Assembly: GCA_963812015.1 (NCBI GenBank)
Contig: CAWETI010000002.1
Coordinates: 1,344,001 to 1,408,000 of the forward strand
Length of the DNA: 64,000 nt
Origin: an uncultured delta proteobacterium
GTDB taxonomy: Bacteria; Desulfobacterota; Desulfobaccia; Desulfobaccales; 0-14-0-80-60-11
Direction of reading: 5' to 3'
Positions 16,240 through 61,422 of this stretch are shown piece by piece. Made by a program: the position numbers and the translations under genes. Under the pieces are notes generated by a model. That model was not told the origin of the DNA and ran no database searches. It saw only the letters and a program-made list of their open reading frames with translations. Position 1 is the first letter of the stretch, and each line of letters begins with the position of its first letter.

Positions 16240-17670
16240 ATGGACATTCCACCGAAATCCGGAAACCGGAAACCGGAAACCGTACTCCCCGCCTCCGGCC
16301 GGGAGTACCTGGGCCTCAAGTCCATCATCGGGCCGCTCTTGGTGGTGGAAGGCGTCAGAGGGGTGGGGTTTGACGAAAGCGTGGAAGTCACCGCCCCCGA
16401 CGGCTCCCGCCAGACAGGCCGGGTACTGGCCGTGGGCAAGAATGAAGCGGTGATCGAGCTTTTCGGCGAGACCGTGGGCCTGTCCTTACAAAAGACCCGG
16501 GCGCGCTTCACTGGCAGCCCTCTGACGATTTCGGTGTCCACCGATCTTTTGGGGCGCATCTTCGACGGTATGGGCCAGCCCCTGGACGGCGGCCCCATGC
16601 CGGTGGGGGAGGCCAGCCGGGACATCAACGGCCAGCCCATCAACCCCACGGCCCGCACCTACCCCCAGGAGTTCATCCAAACGGGGATTTCGGCCATCGA
16701 CGGCATGAACACTTTGGTGCGGGGGCAGAAGCTCCCCATCTTCGCCATGAGCGGGCTGCCCCACAACGAGCTGGCGGCCCAAATCGTGCGCCAGGCCCGC
16801 CTCCTGGGGGAAGAAGAGGAGCGCTTCGCCATCGTGTTTGCGGCCATGGGGGTGCAGCACGACGTGGCCAACATCTTCCGTCAGTCCTTCGAGGCCAGCG
16901 GCGTCCTCAACAACGTGGTCATGTTCCTCAACCTGGCGAACGATCCGGCCATCGGACGCCTCATCACGCCCCGCCTGGCCCTGACGGTGGCGGAGTTCCT
17001 CGCTTTTGACAAGGATCACCACGTCCTGGCCATCCTCACGGACATGACCAACTACTGCGAGGCCTTGCGGGAAGTGGCCAGTTCCAAAGGCGAGGTGCCC
17101 AGCCGGAAAGGCTACCCCGGGTATCTGTACAGCGATCTCGCGTCCATCTATGAACGGGCCGGCAAGGTCGAAGGCCGCAAAGGGTCCATCACCCAGCTGC
17201 CCATGCTCACCATGCCCAACGACGATATCACGCACCCCATCCCGGACCTCACCGGGTACATCACCGAGGGGCAGATCGTGCTGGACCGGGGCCTGCACCA
17301 GCGGGGGATTTACCCGCCCATCAACGTGCTGCCGTCGCTGTCCAGGCTGATGAGCGACGGCATCGGAGGCGGCCGCACCCGGGAGGACCACAGCCACGTG
17401 TCTTCGCAACTCTACGCCGCCTACGACCACGCCCGGCGCATCCAGTCCCTGGCGGCCATCATCGGGGAAGACAGCTTGTCGACGGGGGATCGCCAGGTGC
17501 TCAATTTCGGCCGGGCCTTTGAAGAAAAGTTCCTGCGACAGCGGCCGGATGAAAACCGCACCATCACTCAGACCCTGGACCTGGCCTGGGAGATCCTCAA
17601 GGAATTGCCCCGGGGCGACCTCACCCGGGTGACGGAGGAGGAGATTGAGAAATTTGGGGGAAGGGGCTAG
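16240..17670 (+). CDS. ntpB: V/A-type ATPase subunit B
   Basis: [69 protein letters not shown]. Confidence 0.98.
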
Positions 17671-17823: not shown

Positions 17824-18453
17824 ATGGCGCGCTTGAGCCTTCCCGCCACTAAAGGGAACCTTTTAAAGATCAAGGACGAGCATCTCCTGGCTAGTGAGGC
17901 CGTCACCTTCCTGGAGGAGAAGCGGGACCTGCTGTTGGGGGAATTGCTGCGGCTCCAGGGGCAGGCCGCCACTTTCCGGCGCCGGGTGGAGCAGGCCCTC
18001 AACGCCGCCTATGGCCATCTGGTGGAGGGTCTGCTCTCCCTGGGCCGGGAGGGCGTGGCCCGGGCCGCCCTGGGGGTCTCGGGCGAGGATCGGGTAGTGA
18101 TCAAGGACCGGGGTTTTTTGGGGATGCCCATGCCGGTGGTGGAATTTACTTCCGGGGAGCAGCGGCCCCAGATAAGTTTCGGGGGCACGGTCAGCGCCCT
18201 GGACGAGTGCCAACTGGCCATCCGGGAGGCCCTGGCCCCCCTGGCCGAACTGGCGGAGGTGGAGGCCATTCTCTGGCGGCTGGCCGAGGAGCTGAAACGG
18301 ACCGTGCGGCGCACCAATGCCTTGAATTATATGATCATCCCCACGTATCAAGAGACTATCCACTATCTGGAAGGCGCCCTGGAAGAACGGGAACGGGAAG
18401 GGTTATTTCATCTCAAGCGGGCCAAGGCCCGTAAAGCAGCCAGTAGCCAGTAG
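17824..18453 (+). CDS. ntpD: V/A-type ATPase subunit D
   Basis: PATKGNLL..LEEKRDLL, ELKRTVRRTNAL..IIP, LEEREREG. ATG 17824 chosen over the repeat-derived upstream GTG. Confidence 0.95.
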   Translation: MARLSLPATKGNLLKIKDEHLLASEAVTFLEEKRDLLLGELLRLQGQAATFRRRVEQALNAAYGHLVEGLLSLGREGVARAALGVSGEDRVVIKDRGFLGMPMPVVEFTSGEQRPQISFGGTVSALDECQLAIREALAPLAELAEVEAILWRLAEELKRTVRRTNALNYMIIPTYQETIHYLEGALEEREREGLFHLKRAKARKAASSQ

Positions 18454-22292: not shown

Positions 22293-22410
22293 AGCAGCTG
22301 TCAGCAATCAGCTAAAAGCAGGAAAAATCCTTAAGGAAAAAAGCGGATAATTAAAAAAACCGAAAACCGAAAACAAGAAGCTGAAAGCTGACCGCTGAAA
22401 GCTGAGAGCT
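22293..22410. repeat. Inverted heptamer-arm element (empty) with a nested AAAACCG arm
   Basis: Left arm AGCAGCTGTCAGCAATCAGCT; right arm AGCTGAA AGCTGAC CGCTGAA AGCTGAG AGCT; internal AAAACCGAAAACCGAAAAC. Confidence 0.75.
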
Positions 22411-31947: not shown

Positions 31948-32055
31948 GGGAGAAAAGGGTAAAAGGCGAAAAGGGAAAAAAGGAAAAGAAAGAGAGAATC
32001 AAACAAGGAATTATTCCTTTTCGCCGTTTCCCCTTTTTCCCTTTTTCCCCTCTTC
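31948..32055. repeat. Inverted octamer-arm element (empty) overlapping the hypF 3' end
   Basis: Left arm GGGAGAAA AGGGTAAA AGGCGAAA AGGGAAAA AAGGAAAA; right arm TTCCTTTT CGCCGTTT CCCCTTTT TCCCTTTT TCCCCTCT. Confidence 0.78.
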
Positions 32056-34347
32056 CTCCAGCCGGGCGGCGGCCACGGCCACCTGTCCCAGGGAGATGCA
32101 GCCGTCGTTGGGGGGCGTCAGTTTATGAGTGAGCACCGCAAAGCCCCGCTCCTCCAAAGTTTGTTTCAGTCGGCTGAACAGCAGGGCGTTCTGCATCACC
32201 CCACCGGATAGGGCCACCAGTTCCAGTCCGGTCCGATCACGGATCAGGTCGCAGGCGTCCGCCAGGAGCCGGACCAGGGAGTTATGGAAGCGGGCGGCGA
32301 TGGCGGCCGCGGCCACGCCGGCCAGGTGATCGGTGACCGCGCCGCCGAAAATGGTCAGGGTGTCGAGCACCAGGGCGGCCCCCCCAATTTTTATGGCGGC
32401 GGGATAGAAACCGTCTTCGTCTTCGTCGGCGACCATTTCCAGTTCCATGGCCGGCTGCCCCTCGTAGGTCCGGGTCCGGCAGACGTTAAGGGCCGCGGCC
32501 ACGGCGTCGAAGAGGCGTCCGGCGCTGGAGGTGAGGGGCGAATTCAGCCCCTGAGCCAGCTGGCGGCGCAGGATGCGTTCTTCCAAGGGGGGAAAGTGCA
32601 AACCCAGCCGCCGGGCCTGGTTGCCGAAGTCCTCGCCGTAGAGGCCGTAAAGATAGGCTGCGGCCATGCGGCCCGGATCCCGCACCGCGGCTTCTCCTCC
32701 GGGAAGGCGGACGCAGGCGAGATGGCCGGCCCGGGTAAATCCGGCCAGGTCCGCCACCAGAAGTTCACCGCCCCAGACGGTGCCGTCGGGGCCGTAACCC
32801 GTGCCGTCCAGGGCGATGCCGATAACGCGATCGGTGCGGCGGTTTTCCGCCAAACAGGCGGCGATATGGGCGTGATGGTGCTGCACCCCCATGAGGGACA
32901 CCCCGGTGAGACCATGGGCATAGCGGGTGCTCAGATACAAGGGGTGGAGATCGTGGGCGACGATGGCCGGGTCCTTGCGGCACAGGGCTTTGAAATGGGT
33001 GATGGCGTGCTGGTAATAATCCAAGGTCTCCACCCGGTCCAGGTCGCCGATGTGCTGGCTGAGCAGGGCGACGCCCTGGGCGGCCAGGCAGAAGGTGTTT
33101 TTTTGTTCGGCCCCGACGCCCAAAATAGCCTCCGACTGCAAAGGCAAATAAATGGGGGCGGGGACAAAGCCCCGGGCCCGCCGGACCGGGATCACGTCAG
33201 AGCTCTTGACGGGGCGCACCACGGAGTCGTCGCAGGGCACCTGGATATCCCGGTCATGAAGCAGAAAGGCGTCGGCCAGGCCGGTTAGTTTGCGCCGGGC
33301 CTCGTCGTTGCCGTAGGCCAGGGGCTCTTCGCTGAGGTTGCCGCTGGTCATCACCAGGGCGGCGGGGCCGTGCTCCATGAGCAAAAAGTGCAGGGGAGTG
33401 TAAGGCAACATGAGTCCCAGGTAGCGGTGGCCCGGGGCCACGTGGGCCGAAACGCCGCCCTCGGGGCGCCGGCGGGCCAGGACGATGGGCCGCTCCCGGG
33501 AGAGCAGGAGTGACCGTTCCAGGTCGCCCAGCCGGCAGAGCCGCTCGGCTTCGGCCAGGTCCCGCACCATGAGGGCAAAAGGTTTGGCCACCCGGCCTTT
33601 GCGTTCCCTCAGGGTTTGGACGGCTCCGTCATGCCGGGCGTCGGCGGCCAGGTGAAAGCCCCCCAGGCCCTTGACGGCCACGATCTTCCCATGCATAAGC
33701 AAGCGCGCCGCGGCCGGGATGGCTTCTTGGTCCAGGCGCCGGTCCCCTTCTTCGAGCCAGACCCGGGGCCCGCAGACCGGACAGGCAGTGGGCTCGGCAT
33801 GAAAGCGCCGGTCCTCGGGATTCTCATATTCCGCCCGGCATTGGGGGCACAGGTCGAAGACAGCCATGGTGGTGTGGGGGCGGTCGTAGGGGACCTTCCG
33901 GATGATGGTGAACCGGGGGCCGCAGTTGGTGCAGTTGGTGAAGGGATACCGGTAGCGGCGATTCCGGGGGTCGGCAATGTCGGCCAGGCAGTCGTCACAG
34001 GTGGCCACGTCCGCAGGGATCAGGGCCGCAGTGGCGGCCAGATGCCGGCTCTCCCGGATGGCGAACCCGGTGCTTCCCTCGGGCCGGGATTCGATACTGA
34101 CCACCGCATCGATGCGGGCCAGGGCCGGGGCCTCCTGTTGAAGCTGGCCGATAAAGGTGTCCAGGGAGGTGAGGGGGCCTTCGATCTCGATTTCCACGCA
34201 CTGGGAAGTGTTGCACACCCAACCGGCCAGACGATGCAACCGGGCCAGCCGGTAGACAAAGGGCCGAAAACCGACCCCTTGTACCACGCCGGTCACCTGC
34301 AGCCGTTTTCGGGCCAGAGTCTCTGAAATCGCCATGGGCAGCGTCAC
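32011..34347 (-). CDS. hypF: Carbamoyltransferase HypF
   Basis: GVVQGVGFRPF acylphosphatase domain, CxxC zinc fingers, KGLGGFHL, QHHHAH, LDGTGYG, PPNDG. Confidence 0.98.
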   Translation of the reverse strand: MTLPMAISETLARKRLQVTGVVQGVGFRPFVYRLARLHRLAGWVCNTSQCVEIEIEGPLTSLDTFIGQLQQEAPALARIDAVVSIESRPEGSTGFAIRESRHLAATAALIPADVATCDDCLADIADPRNRRYRYPFTNCTNCGPRFTIIRKVPYDRPHTTMAVFDLCPQCRAEYENPEDRRFHAEPTACPVCGPRVWLEEGDRRLDQEAIPAAARLLMHGKIVAVKGLGGFHLAADARHDGAVQTLRERKGRVAKPFALMVRDLAEAERLCRLGDLERSLLLSRERPIVLARRRPEGGVSAHVAPGHRYLGLMLPYTPLHFLLMEHGPAALVMTSGNLSEEPLAYGNDEARRKLTGLADAFLLHDRDIQVPCDDSVVRPVKSSDVIPVRRARGFVPAPIYLPLQSEAILGVGAEQKNTFCLAAQGVALLSQHIGDLDRVETLDYYQHAITHFKALCRKDPAIVAHDLHPLYLSTRYAHGLTGVSLMGVQHHHAHIAACLAENRRTDRVIGIALDGTGYGPDGTVWGGELLVADLAGFTRAGHLACVRLPGGEAAVRDPGRMAAAYLYGLYGEDFGNQARRLGLHFPPLEERILRRQLAQGLNSPLTSSAGRLFDAVAAALNVCRTRTYEGQPAMELEMVADEDEDGFYPAAIKIGGAALVLDTLTIFGGAVTDHLAGVAAAAIAARFHNSLVRLLADACDLIRDRTGLELVALSGGVMQNALLFSRLKQTLEERGFAVLTHKLTPPNDGCISLGQVAVAAARLEEEGKKGKRGNGEKE

Positions 34348-44049: not shown

Positions 44050-45789
44050 GTGAAGGTAGTTCTGGCCCAAACCGCCGGTTTTTGCATCGGGGTCAAACGG
44101 GCATTGGAATTGGTCCTGAAGGCCATCAATGAAAACCAGGCTAAGATTTACACCTATGGTCCGCTGATCCACAACCCCCAGGTCCTGGAATTATTGCGAG
44201 AACGGGGGATTTCGATTCTCAAGCCTGGGGAGGACGTCCCCCCGGGACTGGTAGTGATCCGGGCCCACGGCATCCCTCCCCAGGAACGGCGCCTGCTGGA
44301 GCAGGGCGGCGGGCGCATCATCGACGCCACCTGCCCCAGGGTGGCCAAGGTCCAGGCCATCATCCAGCGCTGGGCCGCCAAAGGGTGCGCCACCCTGATC
44401 GTGGGGGATGCCGATCATCCGGAGGTGCGGGGCTTGATGGGCTACACCGAGGGGCGGGGTTACGTGGTGTCCACCTCCCGGGATGTCGCGGCCTTGCCTG
44501 ACTTGGACGAACTGATCGTGGTGGCCCAAACCACCCAGAGCAAATCCCAGTTCGATGCCCGGGTCCAGGAAATTACCGCCCGGTTTCCCCAGGCCCAGAT
44601 TTTTAATACCATCTGCGATGCCACCGCCTCCCGCCAGGCCGAGGTCCAGGAACTGTCCCGGCAGGCGGAGGCCCTGGTAGTGGTGGGGGGACGCAACAGC
44701 GGCAATACCCAAAGGCTGGTGGAGGTCTCCCAGGAGACCGGCATTGCCACCTACCAGGTGGAGACCGAGCAGGAACTGGACCTGGTGGAAATGAGCCGCT
44801 ATCAAACCGTGGCCGTGACGGCCGGAGCCTCCACGCCCCACTGGCTCATCAGCAACGTGGTGAACACCTTGAAGCATGCCTGGGCCTTTCGTCCCGGCTC
44901 CTGGACCAACTATCTGTACCGCGCCTGGCGCTTCGTCCTCAAGTCCAACTTATATGTGGCCATCGGCGCCGGGTCCCTCAGCTACACCTCATCCTTGCTG
45001 CAGCAGGTAGAGCCCCAGTGGAGCTATTTTTTCGTGGCCTTCTTCTATGTCTATGCCATGCACCTCCTCAACCATTTCACCGACACGGCCTCCAAGCTCA
45101 ACGATCCGGTCCAGACCATGTTTTACGGCCGCCACCGGCACTTTCTCCTGGTCACCGGCCTGCTCTCCGCCTGCATGGCCCTGGGCCTGGGAGCCTACCT
45201 GGGGCTGTTGCCGTTTATCTTTGTCTTGGTCATGAGCTGTATCGGCCTGATGTACAGTTTCAAAATCATCCCGGAGCGTCTGGCCCAGGCCACCGGCATT
45301 CACCGGCTCAAGGAGATCCCCGGCTCCAAGACCATGTTCACCTCGGTGGCCTGGGGGGTGCTGGCGGCCCTCATCCCGGTGGTGTGCTCCGACCAGGAAA
45401 TCTCCGGGGCCACCGCCATCGCCTTTTTCTTCGTGGCCGGCATGATCTTCATCCGTTCCGGCCTCTTTGAGATCATGGCCATCGAAGGGGACCGGGTGGT
45501 GGGCAAGGAAACCCTGGCCATCGCCCTGGGCAAAGAGCGCACCTTCATCCTGCTGTTCTGCGGTTCTCTGGCCTTTGTGGCCATGTTGCTCGTGGCCGCC
45601 TGGAGGGGCGCCATCCCTTCCCTGGGCTACACCCTGAGCCTGTCCGGGCTCTATATGCTGGGCTATCTCACCCTTTATCACCGGGGCCTGATGGAATCGA
45701 GCCTGTTGCTGGAGTCCCTGGTGGAAGGCAACATGATCCTGGCCGGCATCCTGGCCTTTATCTGGGATCCATATAACGTGATTTTTTAA
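44050..45789 (+). CDS. ispH: IspH (HMBPP reductase) fused to a C-terminal UbiA-like membrane domain
   Basis: AGFC.GV, IHNP, RAHG, DATCP, HPEV, QTT, NTIC, SGNT, TAGASTP; then about 8 TM helices with NHFTD, KEIPGSK and EGD..VGKET. Confidence 0.92.
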   Translation: MKVVLAQTAGFCIGVKRALELVLKAINENQAKIYTYGPLIHNPQVLELLRERGISILKPGEDVPPGLVVIRAHGIPPQERRLLEQGGGRIIDATCPRVAKVQAIIQRWAAKGCATLIVGDADHPEVRGLMGYTEGRGYVVSTSRDVAALPDLDELIVVAQTTQSKSQFDARVQEITARFPQAQIFNTICDATASRQAEVQELSRQAEALVVVGGRNSGNTQRLVEVSQETGIATYQVETEQELDLVEMSRYQTVAVTAGASTPHWLISNVVNTLKHAWAFRPGSWTNYLYRAWRFVLKSNLYVAIGAGSLSYTSSLLQQVEPQWSYFFVAFFYVYAMHLLNHFTDTASKLNDPVQTMFYGRHRHFLLVTGLLSACMALGLGAYLGLLPFIFVLVMSCIGLMYSFKIIPERLAQATGIHRLKEIPGSKTMFTSVAWGVLAALIPVVCSDQEISGATAIAFFFVAGMIFIRSGLFEIMAIEGDRVVGKETLAIALGKERTFILLFCGSLAFVAMLLVAAWRGAIPSLGYTLSLSGLYMLGYLTLYHRGLMESSLLLESLVEGNMILAGILAFIWDPYNVIF

Positions 45790-46373: not shown

Positions 46374-47852
46374 ATGAAAAAGTTTATAGTCTTCGCGGTA
46401 GTTCTGGCCTTGCTGGTGCCTTCTTTGGCCCTGGCCACGGAATTCACCTTGGGTGGTTTCATCAAATTGGATGCCTTCTGGGATTCCGTCCAGCAAGGCA
46501 AGAACATGAACGGTACCATTGGCCGCAACAATGACCCCAACTTGGACCACGGCCGGCTGAAGTTCACGGCCCAGGGCTCCCGGTTCAACTTCACCATCAA
46601 GGGTCCGGACCTCTGGGGCGCTAAGACCACCGGCTACATCGAAATGGACTTTGATATTAACGAGCAGGGCGCCACCACTGCTGCCGGTATCCCGGCAGTA
46701 GCGAACACTGCCAGCGCCTCGAACAACTACGCGCCGCGGCTGCGGCACGCCATGTTCCGGTTCAACTGGCCTGAGACCGAACTGCTGTTCGGCCAGTACT
46801 GGTCCATGTTCTGCGAATGGTATCCTGAACTGGCGGAAGACGGCCCGTTCCAGACCACCGGCATTCCCACCGCCCGGATCCCCCAGATCCGCTTCACCCA
46901 GCAGTTCCTGGGCTGGGGGACGGCGTCTGTGTTGGTCGGCAGTGCCAATACCGCGAGCAATGGCCAGGTCTATTCGACCTTTGACACCAGCGGGCAGTCG
47001 ACTGCGACCCCCCAGGTGCAGGGGAAATTGCAGTACGCCCAGGACTTGTGGGGTAAGGCGGCGTATTACGGGAAACCCACTCCCTTCACCGCCCAGGTCG
47101 TAGCGGGTTGGCAGCGGAGTGGCTTTGCGCAAAACTTTGCCAATGCCACTTACTTTACCTTTGGTCAGAATACCTGGTCTAACTTTTTAACTGGCGCTAA
47201 TACCGCTGGGATCAATCTCAAACATACGACCCTGAATCCCTGGATGGTCATGGGAACCGCGTTTATCCCGGTCATTCCCACCCACAGCGCCAATCTCACC
47301 GGGACCGCCTCGCTGTTGGCGAACTGGTGGATCGGGGCCGGGGTTGACTCCTTTGGGATGGCAGGCGCGACCAACCCCATTAAGTTCAATGATAACAATA
47401 ACGGGATCTATTCGTATAACTACGAGTTGGAGCAGCGCTTCGGCGGCTTCGTCCAGGGTCAGTACTACTTCAACAACGAGTGGAATGTCACCGTGGCCTA
47501 CGGCATGAGCAGGGTCTTCGGCCTCAGCCAGTCGGATACGAACGCGGCCGCCGCCCGGGGCCTTGCTGCTGGAGGCATCAATGCGCCCGGTTACGTCTAT
47601 GCCTTTAACGCTGATGCGTCGAAGCTGCAGCAGCAGTTGGAAGGGATTCTGTGGTACCGGCCCATCCAGGCCATCAAATTCGGTCTGGAATACGCCTATG
47701 GCCAAACCACGTGGTTTCAAAGCACGGGACAGGCTGCTGCATTTCCTACGGGTGCGGTCCCCGCTGTTACTGCTTTCAATGCCACCCCGGTCAACACCTC
47801 GAATGTGGGCAATGCCCACCGGGTGGAGTTCGTCGGGTTCTTCTACTTCTAA
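46374..47852 (+). CDS. Outer-membrane beta-barrel porin (DcaP-like)
   Basis: Signal peptide, GGFIKLD, SRFNF, GYIEMDF, RLRHA, GQYWS, RIPQIR, C-terminal aromatic FFYF. Confidence 0.82.
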   Translation: MKKFIVFAVVLALLVPSLALATEFTLGGFIKLDAFWDSVQQGKNMNGTIGRNNDPNLDHGRLKFTAQGSRFNFTIKGPDLWGAKTTGYIEMDFDINEQGATTAAGIPAVANTASASNNYAPRLRHAMFRFNWPETELLFGQYWSMFCEWYPELAEDGPFQTTGIPTARIPQIRFTQQFLGWGTASVLVGSANTASNGQVYSTFDTSGQSTATPQVQGKLQYAQDLWGKAAYYGKPTPFTAQVVAGWQRSGFAQNFANATYFTFGQNTWSNFLTGANTAGINLKHTTLNPWMVMGTAFIPVIPTHSANLTGTASLLANWWIGAGVDSFGMAGATNPIKFNDNNNGIYSYNYELEQRFGGFVQGQYYFNNEWNVTVAYGMSRVFGLSQSDTNAAAARGLAAGGINAPGYVYAFNADASKLQQQLEGILWYRPIQAIKFGLEYAYGQTTWFQSTGQAAAFPTGAVPAVTAFNATPVNTSNVGNAHRVEFVGFFYF

Positions 47853-47875
47853 CCTGAAAACCGGTTGACTTCAAC

Positions 47876-47912
47876 CAGCCCACAGGGTAATATCCCTGTG
47901 GGCTTTTTATTT
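47876..47912 (+). terminator. Intrinsic terminator after the porin
   Basis: AGCCCACAGGG-taatat-CCCTGTGGGCT followed by TTTTATTT. Confidence 0.85.
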
Positions 47913-47917
47913 CTTGA

Positions 47918-48404
47918 CGGTTTTCAGTTTTCAGTTTCCGGTTTTCGGTTAAAAGCATGGAGCAAAAAGGTTATAAGTCAAGATCTTACCGGTATTTAGA
48001 GGTGTGGAAGCTGTCAATCGATTTTGTGAAGAAAGTTTATCAGGTAACGCACAATTTTCCCGCTTCTGAAAATTATGGGCTAATAAACCAGATCAGGAGA
48101 GCCGCGGTTTCCATCCCTTCCAATATTGCCGAAGGCCAGGGCAGAAATTCCACCAAAGAATTTAAACAATTTCTGGCAATAAGCTTGGGTTCCCTGGCAG
48201 AATTAGAAACCCAGTTGATCATTGCCAAAGAAATAGAATACTTGACCCAGAATGGACTTGATGCTCTGCTGAGCCCCCTCGATAGAATAAGAAAAATGAT
48301 CAAGGGCTTATCAAAAGGAATATAATAATGCTTATTTTGGCAAAGACTATAGCTTGTCTTTTTCTTTCCGAAAACCGAAAACCGAAAACCGAAAACTTAA
48401 AACG
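47918..48404 (+). mobile_element. Candidate element: inverted heptamer arms enclosing a four-helix-bundle gene
   Basis: Left arm CGGTTTT CAGTTTT CAGTTTC CGGTTTT CGGTT (47918-47950); right arm CCG AAAACCG AAAACCG AAAACCG AAAACT (48368-48397); AT-rich interior. Confidence 0.6.
47957..48325 (+). CDS. Four-helix-bundle protein (23S rRNA IVP / Avd-like family)
   Basis: YRYLEVWK, FP..ENYGL..QIRRAAVSIPSNIAEG.GR, FL.IS.GSL.ELETQL. Confidence 0.93.
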   Translation: MEQKGYKSRSYRYLEVWKLSIDFVKKVYQVTHNFPASENYGLINQIRRAAVSIPSNIAEGQGRNSTKEFKQFLAISLGSLAELETQLIIAKEIEYLTQNGLDALLSPLDRIRKMIKGLSKGI

Positions 48405-48413
48405 GAGTGCGGA

Positions 48414-49562
48414 ATGCTAAAGAGATTCGTGTTGGTGCTGCGACTGGGGCTTCTGCTGTTCGTGTCGGCCTCCCTGCTGGTGGGGGGATGCAGCACGGTG
48501 AAGAAGTGGGCGGGTTATGGGGGCGAGGGCGAAGATGAAGAAACGGCGCCACCCGAGGCCCAGCAAGAAACGGTGATGATTGACGGCAAACCCTATGTTC
48601 GCAGCAAAAATCCCTACTGGCTCAGCTACGCCAACGCCCCGGAATATCTCTATGTCGAAAAGGGCACGGAGTTCGTGACCGCCCAACAGCACCTGGTGCA
48701 ATCCCTGGCCAAGGCCATCGGCCAACAGCAGACCCAGGCCGCGGGCAAGACCATTCCCCCGGATAAACTCCAGGAAATGGTGCGGGCCGAGGTGGACCGC
48801 ATCCTGAGGGAGCAGGGGCTGGGAGGTTTTGTCTCCCAGGCCAAGGGGGGCGGCGTCTCGGCCGTTGTGGGACGGGCCGTGGCGGTCATTCCCGATCTGG
48901 ATACGCCCCGGACCTATGACGGGATGAACCGCACCCTGGCCATGTCCCTGGGAGATGCCATGGGCCGGACCAAAGATCTCAAGGTGAGCGCTCCGGATCA
49001 GGTGCAAGAGGCCCTGCGCAAGGCGGGGGCGGCAGGCAAACTGACGCTCAGCCCCAATATCAAGGCTCTGGGGGATGCCCTGGGGGTACAGGGCATTGTC
49101 CTGACCGGGGTGATGCCGCCGGAAGGCGGGACGCCGGGAGCCATGGTCCTGCAAGTCTTTGATACCTTCACCGGCCTCCAGGAAGAAGCCATCGTGGCGC
49201 CGGCGGGCGCTGAGGGGATGAAGCCCGAGACGGTCACGAAGTTCGCCCAGGCCAACGCCCTGCGGGTGGCCGGGGACCTCATCAAAATTTCGTGGTTCGG
49301 GCGGGTGGAGTTTGTCAAGGAGGGCAAAGTCTACCTGAACCTGGGCCAGAACTCGGGCCTCAAGGTGGGCGACCGCCTCAAGGTGGTGCAACCGGGCAAA
49401 GAGGTGGTCAACCCCAAGACCCAGGCGGTCCTGGGTTACACTGCGGATACCCCCCAGGGGGAGATCAAGGTGACGGAGCTCCTGGGAAACAGCGGAGCTG
49501 TGGGCCTGCCGGTGAGCGGCGGCCCCTTCCAGGCCAACGATAAGGTGAAGGCGGTTAAATAA
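48414..49562 (+). CDS. Lipoprotein with a FlgT-C-terminal-like beta domain
   Basis: Lipobox VGGC; C-terminal VYLNLG..SGLKVGD.L.V..G.EV..P.T..VLG motif; ATG 48414 after GGAG. Confidence 0.75.
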   Translation: MLKRFVLVLRLGLLLFVSASLLVGGCSTVKKWAGYGGEGEDEETAPPEAQQETVMIDGKPYVRSKNPYWLSYANAPEYLYVEKGTEFVTAQQHLVQSLAKAIGQQQTQAAGKTIPPDKLQEMVRAEVDRILREQGLGGFVSQAKGGGVSAVVGRAVAVIPDLDTPRTYDGMNRTLAMSLGDAMGRTKDLKVSAPDQVQEALRKAGAAGKLTLSPNIKALGDALGVQGIVLTGVMPPEGGTPGAMVLQVFDTFTGLQEEAIVAPAGAEGMKPETVTKFAQANALRVAGDLIKISWFGRVEFVKEGKVYLNLGQNSGLKVGDRLKVVQPGKEVVNPKTQAVLGYTADTPQGEIKVTELLGNSGAVGLPVSGGPFQANDKVKAVK

Positions 49563-49608
49563 AGACTGTTTTCGGTTTTGGGTGAAAAGATCATAACCCG
49601 TAGATAAT

Positions 49609-49636: not shown

Positions 49637-49679
49637 TGTTGTTCTTATGCCTTGGTTAGTTATCATCCGAAAACCGTCT

Positions 49680-49770
49680 AAAATTCCCCCCTTTACCAAG
49701 GGGGGGGTAGGGGGGATTTTATAACTATCTTAAAATCCCCCTAAATCCCCCTTTTTCAAAGGGGGACTTT
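49680..49770. repeat. CCCCCTTT-N-AAGGGGG double-hairpin palindrome
   Basis: CCCCCCTTTaccAAGGGGGG, TAGGGGGGATTTT..AAAATCCCCCTA, CCCCCTTTttcAAAGGGGG; partial copy near 13237-13263. Confidence 0.72.
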
Positions 49771-52087: not shown

Positions 52088-52141
52088 GCTGAAAGCTGAA
52101 AGCTGACCGCTGTAAGCCACTTTAATCTGACCGCTGATAGC
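52088..52141. repeat. Heptamer arm(s) between aroC and tyrA
   Basis: GCTGAAA GCTGAAA GCTGACC GCTGTAA and CTGACC GCTGATA GC; same unit as 22379-22410; partner arm not clear. Confidence 0.65.
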
Positions 52142-61250: not shown

Positions 61251-61422
61251 AGGGGCGAAAAGGGAAAAAGGCGAAAAGGGAAAAAGGGGAGAAAAAAAGT
61301 CAGGCATCACTCGTGGCGCTCCCGTGTTTAGTGGGGAGAAGTGGAACGAGAAAAGTTAAGAGGCACCTGATTGACAGGTCCTTTCCCTTCTCGCCTTTTT
61401 CCCTCTTCTCCTTTTTTCCCCT
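61251..61422. repeat. Inverted octamer-arm element (empty) between cimA and comEA
   Basis: Left arm GGGCGAAA AGGGAAAA AGGCGAAA AGGGAAAA AGGGGAGA; right arm TTTCCCTT CTCGCCTT TTTCCCTC TTCTCCTT TTTTCCCC; about 90-nt unique spacer. Confidence 0.8.

Follow-up and report, generated by a model that had tools for sequence, protein, structure and literature searches.

A PF05635 gene enclosed by inverted heptamer arrays in a Desulfobaccales genome, and its resemblance to rRNA intervening sequences

Organization of the Cassette and Its Protein

Between positions 47,918 and 48,403 of a 64,000-nucleotide stretch of DNA (hereafter, the window) from an uncultured delta proteobacterium of the Desulfobaccales (GenBank assembly GCA_963812015.1, contig CAWETI010000002.1, positions 1,344,001 to 1,408,000 of the forward strand), a small gene encoding a four-helix-bundle protein (IVP) of the PF05635/S23p family is enclosed by two inverted arrays of tandem heptamers (Table 1). 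The gene and its two arms are referred to here as the cassette, the genome that carries it as G000, and related genomes as G001, G005, and so forth. The 5' arm reads CGGTTTT CAGTTTT CAGTTTC CGGTTTT CGGTT, and its last base is 6 nt from the IVP start codon at 47957. The 3' arm begins after a gap of 42 nt from the IVP stop codon; its exact CCGAAAA units (4.1 copies) span 48368–48396 and a degenerate unit extends it to 48403, directly followed by a GGAG at 48404 and by the ATG of a lipoprotein-like gene at 48414. A repeat search pairs 47920–47950 with 48373–48403, giving a 31-nt arm with 90% complementarity around a 422-nt loop, and finds no long repeats other than the arms in 47800–48500. In RNA folding, the two arms pair in the minimum free energy (MFE) and centroid structures alike. 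The IVP open reading frame (ORF) has a GC content of 0.41, against 0.61 for the window. An earlier sequence-only reading of this DNA had described an AT-rich gene in the loop of a stem of about 30 bp, with a terminator hairpin ahead of the 5' arm. Its coordinates for the arms, the start and stop codons, their spacing, and the ribosome-binding site (RBS) of the next gene all hold on re-reading, the stem and the base composition are as given above, and a terminator scan recovered the hairpin at 47877–47904. The gene with its inverted heptamer arms is a real feature.

We know of no function assigned to the PF05635/S23p family since its discovery in rRNA intervening sequences (IVSs) in 1993, nor of any catalytic activity of the IVP protein. 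IVP matches PF05635 with an E-value of 5.3e-41 (139.6 bits; curated cut-off 33.8), TIGR02436 with 131.8 bits (cut-off 24), and NF008911 with 140 bits (cut-off 137). Its structure model (pLDDT 91.7) has helices at residues 15–31, 42–61, 66–92, and 98–121. Among solved structures it is most like Xcc0516 and BT_0352 (PDB 2gsc and 2rld), proteins to which neither a function nor a nucleic-acid partner has been assigned: the sequence matches 2gsc with an E-value of 4.1e-24, the model superposes on it in Foldseek with a TM-score of 0.88–0.90 and a root-mean-square deviation of 0.9 Å, and 2rld is also a structural neighbor. Avd of diversity-generating retroelements (DGRs) follows (4dwl and 8ub7; TM-score ~0.76–0.79). 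The 2gsc and 2rld entries contain five chains each, proteins of this type are described as homopentamers (Lin et al., 2006; PMC4990558), and IVP would be a pentamer by homology. A family motif, GxxRxxxSxxxNxxE, has been reported, as has the presence of the family in cas loci (PMC3936711). In IVP, R48-x3-S52-x3-N56-x2-E59 is present, in columns that are invariant or at least 90% conserved (alignment A1), and the leading G-x2 is off that spacing.

The protein is basic (pI 9.6), and its profile searches matched PF05635 and bAvd-like families and no nuclease, recombinase, polymerase, or transposase family. A genome-wide profile search found only one PF05635 match in G000, the cassette gene itself; among 40 relatives searched, 36 have from 1 to 20 matches (range 0–20), several with in-frame stops. 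The ratio of nonsynonymous to synonymous substitution rates (dN/dS) is 0.07–0.39 in the six pairs with unsaturated dS, and intact IVP copies are under purifying selection. In one relative (G027:C1:3064838–3086641), two clusters ~18 kb apart together hold ~15 full or partial PF05635 matches, most of them with in-frame stops.

Table 1. Features at the porin-like/lipoprotein-like junction (positions in the window).
Feature	Position	Strand	Basis
Upstream gene, putative outer-membrane beta-barrel ("porin"), 492 aa	46374..47852	+	ORF; signal-peptide-like N-terminus, C-terminal FFYF
Sigma-70-like promoter TTGACT-17-TAATAT, predicted	47865..47893	+	Consensus match; 25 nt upstream of cassette
Terminator-like hairpin of upstream gene, -10 hexamer in loop	47877..47904	+	Terminator scan, 11 pairs and T-run; kept in relatives
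5' arm, heptamer C(G/A)GTTT(T/C) in 4.4 tandem copies	47918..47950	+	TRF, period 7
IVP gene, 122-aa four-helix-bundle protein (PF05635/TIGR02436)	47957..48325	+	Profile matches and structure model
3' arm, 4.1 exact CCGAAAA units and one degenerate unit	48368..48403	+	TRF, repeat pairing
Downstream gene with GGAG RBS, lipoprotein-like, 382 aa from ATG 48414	48404..49562	+	Lipobox-like LVGGC read from sequence

Heptamer Arms across the Gene Family

Arms were scored as the best ungapped Watson-Crick match between the 160 nt upstream and the 160 nt downstream of each homologue, with a threshold of at least 13, at 108 loci: 28 in relatives and 80 from a broad scan of metagenome-assembled genomes (MAGs) and isolates of many phyla (two further loci, with too short a flank, were left out). 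The G000 cassette scores 22. The threshold is reached at 73 of the 108 loci (27/28 in relatives and 46/80 across phyla). Among the controls, it is reached by none of 108 shuffled flanks and by two of 192 windows that keep the geometry but are shifted by 560 nt. Homologues do not generally lack inverted tandem arms. By eye, ~14 of 16 extra IVP copies from five genus members also have both arms, and a homologue in the cyanobacterium Chamaesiphon (L069) carries heptamer arms as well. A Methanophagales archaeon MAG (L079) contains a 50%-identical IVP homologue with an arm score of 6, its upstream flank being only 51 nt.

The period of the arms is 7 nt at 64 of the 73 armed loci, 8 nt at five, 9 nt at three, and 5 nt at one, with a median arm of 26 nt and a median inter-arm distance of 419 nt. 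The repeat unit varies across loci (CAGTAGT, GGCAGTA, AGTTTCG, GTGAATA, CGTGGAT, and others), and the two arms of one cassette match. A separate IVP clade, ~38% identical and found in four genus members, has arms of 8-mers (GAAAAGGG/CCCTTTTC); G000 has no member of this clade. Hairpins with these 8-mer arms, GAAAAGGG and CCCTTTTC, lie in the window at 31952–32056 and 61258–61416.

The orientation of the gene relative to its neighbors was counted by a simple ORF rule in the 58 cassettes with clear ORFs on both flanks (12 others were dropped for short flanks and three for unclear ORFs). Both neighbors are co-oriented with IVP in 46, the upstream neighbor only in nine, the downstream neighbor only in three, and in none is the gene antisense to both, which argues that the cassette is placed where host read-through would transcribe it. 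The 23S rRNA gene of G000 (C3:356676–359689) matches none of the loci examined, including 109 other IVP-homologue loci.

Gain, Loss, and Inversion of the Cassette

At the porin-like/lipoprotein-like junction (site 1), 28 genomes could be compared: 12 have an intact cassette, five a decaying one (frameshift, stop, or truncation, with the arms retained), two the arms only, and nine no arms. The junction of G012, a member of the same genus, is empty and consists of the promoter/terminator site, a 107-nt spacer, and the lipoprotein-like gene, with neither arms nor ORF. By eye, no target-site duplication is evident in G000 against this empty site, where the spacer also differs. The next gap, between the lipoprotein-like gene and serS, has arms in most of the 28 genomes, with IVP forward, reverse, or absent, and holds a full cassette in either orientation in ~10 related genomes. 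In G000 this gap retains two-unit relics, CTGTTTTCGGTTTTGGGT at ~49566–49583 and CCGAAAACCGTCTA at ~49667–49680, right after the lipoprotein-like stop codon. These relic arms (49566–49583 and 49667–49680) enclose a REP-like palindrome. On the serS side, a comparison of G053 with G058, two species of one genus, reveals the whole cassette reverse-complemented (75% identity across 474 nt) between flanks that match in the forward direction, and the break points fall within the arms.

Sites that are occupied in relatives were also followed in G000, which is cleanly empty at three (L007, L026, and L029), has a gene-less hairpin of another type at one (L008), and has relics at two (L013 and L023). 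In the window, an array of 4.6 CCGGAAA units at 16251–16282 is the surviving 3' arm of the L013 cassette, which is full in G011; the 5' side has been replaced by another repeat. One operon (G000 C2:1089838–1094111) has three gene gaps that hold IVP cassettes in different relatives (L007, L008, L012, and L028); in G000 one of these gaps is empty, one has a gene-less hairpin, and one has an 8-mer array.

Two kinds of arm, T-type (TRGTTTT) and C-type (CRGTTTT), occur at site 1. Proteins with TGGTTTT/TAGTTTT arms form one clade there (98/98 support) that includes three genera, and CGGTTTT-armed proteins fall on the other side; both kinds of arm and protein are found within genus g1 and again within genus g16. 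Arm type and clade are not strictly tied, as T-type arms at a second site (site 2) of G018 surround a protein that groups with the non-T clade. Between G000 and G005, the lipoprotein-like genes are close (dS of 0.36), but the IVPs are 65% identical. These values and an IVP tree that is incongruent with genus point to replacement of the cassette at site 1; homologous recombination might instead have exchanged a larger tract, because the adjacent porin-like C-terminus is itself hypervariable.

The sequence-only reading had proposed a self-contained cassette, to be weighed against a syntenic, vertically inherited gene, and had looked to empty sites among relatives. Synteny is real, insofar as 17 of the 28 genomes have the cassette at this junction; strict vertical descent agrees poorly with the two deep protein and arm lineages within single genera, and G012, one of the nine armless junctions, provides an empty site. 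The gene with its arms, which recurs at 73 of 108 loci and is present, decayed, reduced to arms, absent, or inverted at defined sites, is a discrete DNA unit that undergoes gain, loss, decay, and inversion at exact intergenic sites. One site thereby offers a natural series (empty, full, decaying, arms only, and two arm types), with an inverted copy next door.

Sequence Constraint in the Arms and Gene-Less Arrays

The 47 distinct heptamers align on a shared core, approximately YAGTR, with 4.55 bits vs. 3.80 ± 0.12 bits (maximum 4.10) in 40 within-heptamer shuffles. G exceeds C in the 5' arm at 64 of 73 loci (44/46 in the broad set); because this polarity is unchanged by reverse complementation, it describes the hairpin and not the orientation of the gene. 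The pattern of units within an arm differs among close orthologues and stays mirrored inside each cassette. Conversion between arms fits these mirrored patterns and the inversion as well as selection does.

Arrays of the same heptamers are also found without a gene. There are 49 arrays of at least three CGGTTTT-like units in G000, ~10 of them in inverted pairs with dissimilar loops of 30–700 nt, and this genome also carries other 7- and 8-mer array families. Three of its C-type gene-less hairpins were traced in five genus members, and arms are present at all three sites in at least some of them; judged by sequence, these sites are old and orthologous across the genus. A recent insertion of the gene-less hairpins in G000 was considered and finds no support, since the arms are already in place at all three sites in genus members. 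For one hairpin, with a loop 88% identical over 1.6 kb between G000 and G006, both arms are of mixed C/TGGTTTT units in G000, of TGGTTTT in G005 and G006, and of AGGTTT-type in G010 and G012.

A census of the two array types, as overlapping pattern matches in genomes that are kin and of which one (G006) is only 73% complete, gave 55 T-type matches in G005, 65 in G006, and 13 in G010, the genomes with a T-type IVP, and 0 in G012, 8 in G001, and 3 in G000. C-type matches number 38 in G000, 49 in G005, 29 in G012, 38 in G010, 87 in G006, and 75 in G001; no C-type IVP was found in G005, G012, G010, or G006, and G001 has only a frameshifted copy. The census is mixed, with T-type arrays apparently tracking a T-type IVP and C-type arrays showing no such link to a C-type IVP.

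Several further arrays and hairpins are worth recording. Two other small ORFs of G000 are boxed by CGGTTTT/AAAACCG arms, at C3:955918–956629 (L139, 166 aa) and C2:16900–17529 (L140, 163 aa); one is AT-rich and the other GC-rich and on the opposite strand, and neither has a Pfam family. Within the window, gene-less hairpins lie at 18437–18458/18624–18650 (CAGTAGC / CTGACAA) and 23560–23575/23688–23719 (GTTAGCAGTTAG / CTAACAG). The CAGTAGC / CTGACAA and GTTAGCAGTTAG / CTAACAG arm types flank IVP genes in relatives. At 22356–22410, 2.7 units of AAAACCG pass at once into 4.7 units of GCTGAAA just before an ATG, and a lone array of 4.3 GCTGAAA units occupies 52088–52117; both are of 3' type and have no obvious partner.

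Relationship to Known Elements

The best-matching described element is the IVS of Coxiella burnetii, a 428-nt element in 23S rRNA that contains an S23p ORF (Warrier et al., 2016; PMC4990558). RNase III cuts its 28-bp terminal stem midway, the S23p ATG is preceded by GACAGAT heptamers in two or three tandem copies, and the ORF shows signs of decay (PMC4990558). An ORF-bearing 23S rRNA IVS is also reported from Leptospira. The Coxiella IVS and the G000 cassette share a PF05635 ORF within terminal inverted repeats, a stem of ~28–31 bp, heptamers of variable copy number before the ATG, a decay-prone ORF, and a length of ~430–490 nt. Unlike the Coxiella IVS, the G000 cassette is in the leader of a protein-coding gene and not in 23S rRNA, its heptamer is CGGTTTT rather than GACAGAT, and RNase III cutting, which was shown for Coxiella, is predicted here. 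The connection to rRNA IVSs that the sequence-only reading had made is therefore borne out in print (PMC4990558), and its description of the element as novel was too strong, as this kind of element is already known from rRNA. Apart from the Coxiella report, a literature search that had most subscription journals outside its reach yielded no paper linking the PF05635 family to flanking heptamer arms, and none that extends such arms to the family as a whole or describes them at sites other than rRNA.

The likeness of a PF05635-family protein to Avd has been noted before (PMC10053308), and IVP shares with Avd its basic character as well as the four-helix-bundle fold. It differs from Avd in profile, with PF22296 reached at an E-value of 1.4e-8 and 35.6 bits (cut-off 40) and NF033474 at 24 bits (cut-off 80). 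Unlike in a DGR, neither a reverse transcriptase nor template/variable repeats are found in the cassette or in its two neighbors, which are the porin-like and lipoprotein-like genes.

REPtrons are units in which a REP-associated tyrosine transposase (RAYT) gene lies between inverted repetitive extragenic palindromic (REP) sequences, and they are accompanied by many gene-less copies of REP sequences and bacterial interspersed mosaic elements (BIMEs). The cassette resembles them in having a single gene boxed by inverted repeats, dispersed gene-less inverted pairs, and a repeat type that partly tracks the protein clade. In contrast to a REPtron, its protein is not a HUH/Y1 (RAYT) transposase, and tandem heptamer arrays take the place of single palindromes as its repeats. 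The short tandemly repeated repetitive (STRR) sequences of cyanobacteria are intergenic tandem heptamers of unknown function. They are similar to the arms in this respect, and we found no publication that connects STRR heptamers with the PF05635 family, with a gene that they flank, or with an arrangement in inverted pairs. To our knowledge, the tandem heptamer repeats of bacterial genomes also lack an explanation.

Interpretation of the Cassette

With slightly more confidence than doubt, we read the cassette as an rRNA-IVS-type hairpin in the leader of the lipoprotein-like gene, with arms for which pairing in the transcript is predicted and cutting by host RNase III is likely. It is placed in a predicted leader because a conserved promoter-like site directly precedes it, as it does the empty junction of G012. 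RNA-level excision is inferred from the anatomy of the cassette, its orientation bias, the presence of an RNase III gene in G000, and the Coxiella experiments. In this scheme, transcription would start at the host promoter-like site upstream of the cassette, and the 5' arm would stay free until the 3' arm is made ~420 nt later. At that point the arms could pair into a stem of 31 bp or more, which RNase III would cut as it has been shown to do in the Coxiella IVS. A near-native leader would thus remain on the lipoprotein mRNA, and the insert would do little harm. More speculatively, the basic IVP, a pentamer by homology, may bind the heptamers; such binding is proposed because a stem by itself would not call for the constraint seen in the sequence and period of the arms. 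RNA excision would explain how leaders, operon gaps, and rRNA alike can tolerate such inserts. This locus shows that the rRNA "IVS" is just one of the places occupied by a far more widespread cassette, which also inhabits mRNA leaders and operon gaps.

Several observations weigh against this excision scheme. The z-score of the whole-region fold is a modest -1.86. Mismatches between arms are of G.U type in 41 cases and of A.C type in 32 (p = 0.35), a difference that is not significant and gives no sign that sense-RNA pairing is selected, and inversion and gene conversion could keep the arms complementary at the level of DNA. The promoter at 47865–47893 is a consensus match only, and the IVP start is 6 nt from the arm and lacks a clear Shine-Dalgarno sequence. 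In Coxiella, the S23p protein is seemingly not made (PMC4990558). Metatranscriptome contigs come from relatives only (word shares of at most 0.18; four aligned, with 90–99% matches), and contigs cannot show RNA ends. Finally, the 7-nt period and the conserved core exceed what an RNase III stem needs, and RNA excision leaves this period, the shared core, and the joint rewriting of both arms unexplained. As to the metatranscriptome, its depth spikes on both arms stem from many unrelated heptamer hairpins. Its 5'-arm/3'-arm joints were considered as excision products and are read instead as other gene-less hairpins or strain variants, with unknown letters between the arms.

The period, the core, and the joint rewriting of both arms point to a partner that reads the sequence, and the encoded pentamer-type protein would be the obvious candidate. 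It is tentatively suggested, at a likelihood well short of even, that each subunit of a pentameric IVP recognizes one unit of its own 7-nt repeat and that the protein causes the arms to be made, rewritten, and spread, such that the cassettes and hundreds of gene-less bacterial hairpins would form one RAYT/REP-like system. In that event, rRNA IVSs would be the best-known insertions of the system, and the heptamer repeats of bacteria would acquire a partner protein.

An alternative takes the cassette as a REPtron-like DNA element, in which the arrays would be protein-binding terminal inverted repeats, a pentameric IVP would recognize its own type of repeat and together with host enzymes make, rewrite, or mobilize the arms (those of the dispersed gene-less hairpins included), and RNA pairing would be incidental. 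We regard this as an unlikely though serious reading. The information in the YAGTR core (4.55 vs. 3.80 ± 0.12 bits), the G>C bias of the 5' arm in 64 of 73 loci, and the strict 7-nt period all suit a protein that recognizes DNA, as does the inversion of a cassette between its arms. Arm type also tracks protein clade in part, with T-type arms in a 98/98-supported clade of three genera and 8-mer arms on the ~38%-identical clade; co-inheritance alone, however, predicts such a correlation, and the T-type arms on a non-T-clade protein at site 2 of G018 break it. The dispersed arrays bear on the question from both sides. G000 has 49 CGGTTTT arrays with ~10 inverted pairs and a single IVP gene bearing these arms, high counts of T-type arrays are confined to genomes with a T-type IVP, and at one orthologous site a gene-less hairpin whose loop is homologous has both arms of C/TGGTTTT in G000 and of TGGTTTT in G005 and G006. 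On the other hand, C-type arrays are abundant in genomes in which no C-type IVP was found, the T-type correlation may reflect a single lineage event, and the gene-less hairpins are old and orthologous rather than recent insertions. Moreover, IVP is a 122-aa helical bundle that matches no nuclease, recombinase, or polymerase family, and comparison with the empty site reveals no target-site duplication.

It seems quite improbable that the cassette is instead a regulatory module, in which IVP would be an RNA- or DNA-binding regulator and the heptamer arrays its operators, serving autoregulation and the tuning of the lipoprotein, with the gene-less arrays as a regulon. Such a role would suit a basic protein (pI 9.6) that is under purifying selection and is homologous to Avd, itself part of a solved RNA-protein complex (8ub7), as well as arms that abut start and stop codons and RBSs at the G000 locus and elsewhere, and gene-less hairpins that are conserved at orthologous sites across the genus. 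Against it, neighboring genes are unrelated from locus to locus, IVP is often lost while the neighbors stay, G012 and eight other genomes have the junction without any arms, and a copy number of 0 to 20 per genome among relatives is the behavior of a selfish element, not of a regulator. Lastly, a fixed, vertically inherited small gene with slippage by-products as its flanking repeats, of which the role would be at most that of a terminator-like structure, accords with the synteny in 17 of 28 related genomes and with the variable heptamer copy number that slippage predicts, but it can hardly be maintained, given that slippage makes no matching inverted array on the opposite side of a gene and 73 of 108 loci have one, with differing units, that two deep cassette lineages exist within single genera (dS of 0.36 for the lipoprotein-like genes of G000 and G005 vs. 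65% identity of their IVPs), and that there are clean empty sites and an inversion.

Flanking Genes and Other Features of the Window

The gene upstream of the cassette has no Pfam family, and its porin-like label is read from the signal peptide and the terminal ...FFYF only. Its C-terminal 150 aa are 28–54% identical among relatives, and the adjacent lipoprotein is 50–84% identical, which suggests diversifying selection or allele exchange at the porin-like C-terminus. The lipoprotein-like gene has only a weak match to FlgT_C in Pfam, and 27 of the 31 genomes in its taxonomic family have an orthologue.

The predicted sigma-70-like promoter between the two genes, which would drive both the cassette and the lipoprotein-like gene, has its -10 hexamer inside the loop of the terminator hairpin of the upstream gene. 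By eye, TTGAC(T/A) and a TAnnAT-like hexamer are found in all 25 of the junctions inspected in same-family genomes (25/25), and the terminator hairpin is likewise conserved.

For annotation, hairpins with such arms mark relics of the cassette, and they can supply stop codons and reshape leaders. Elsewhere in the window, a 579-aa ORF at 44050–45789 appears from its translation to be a fusion, with an IspH/LytB-like N-terminal half and a hydrophobic C-terminal half.

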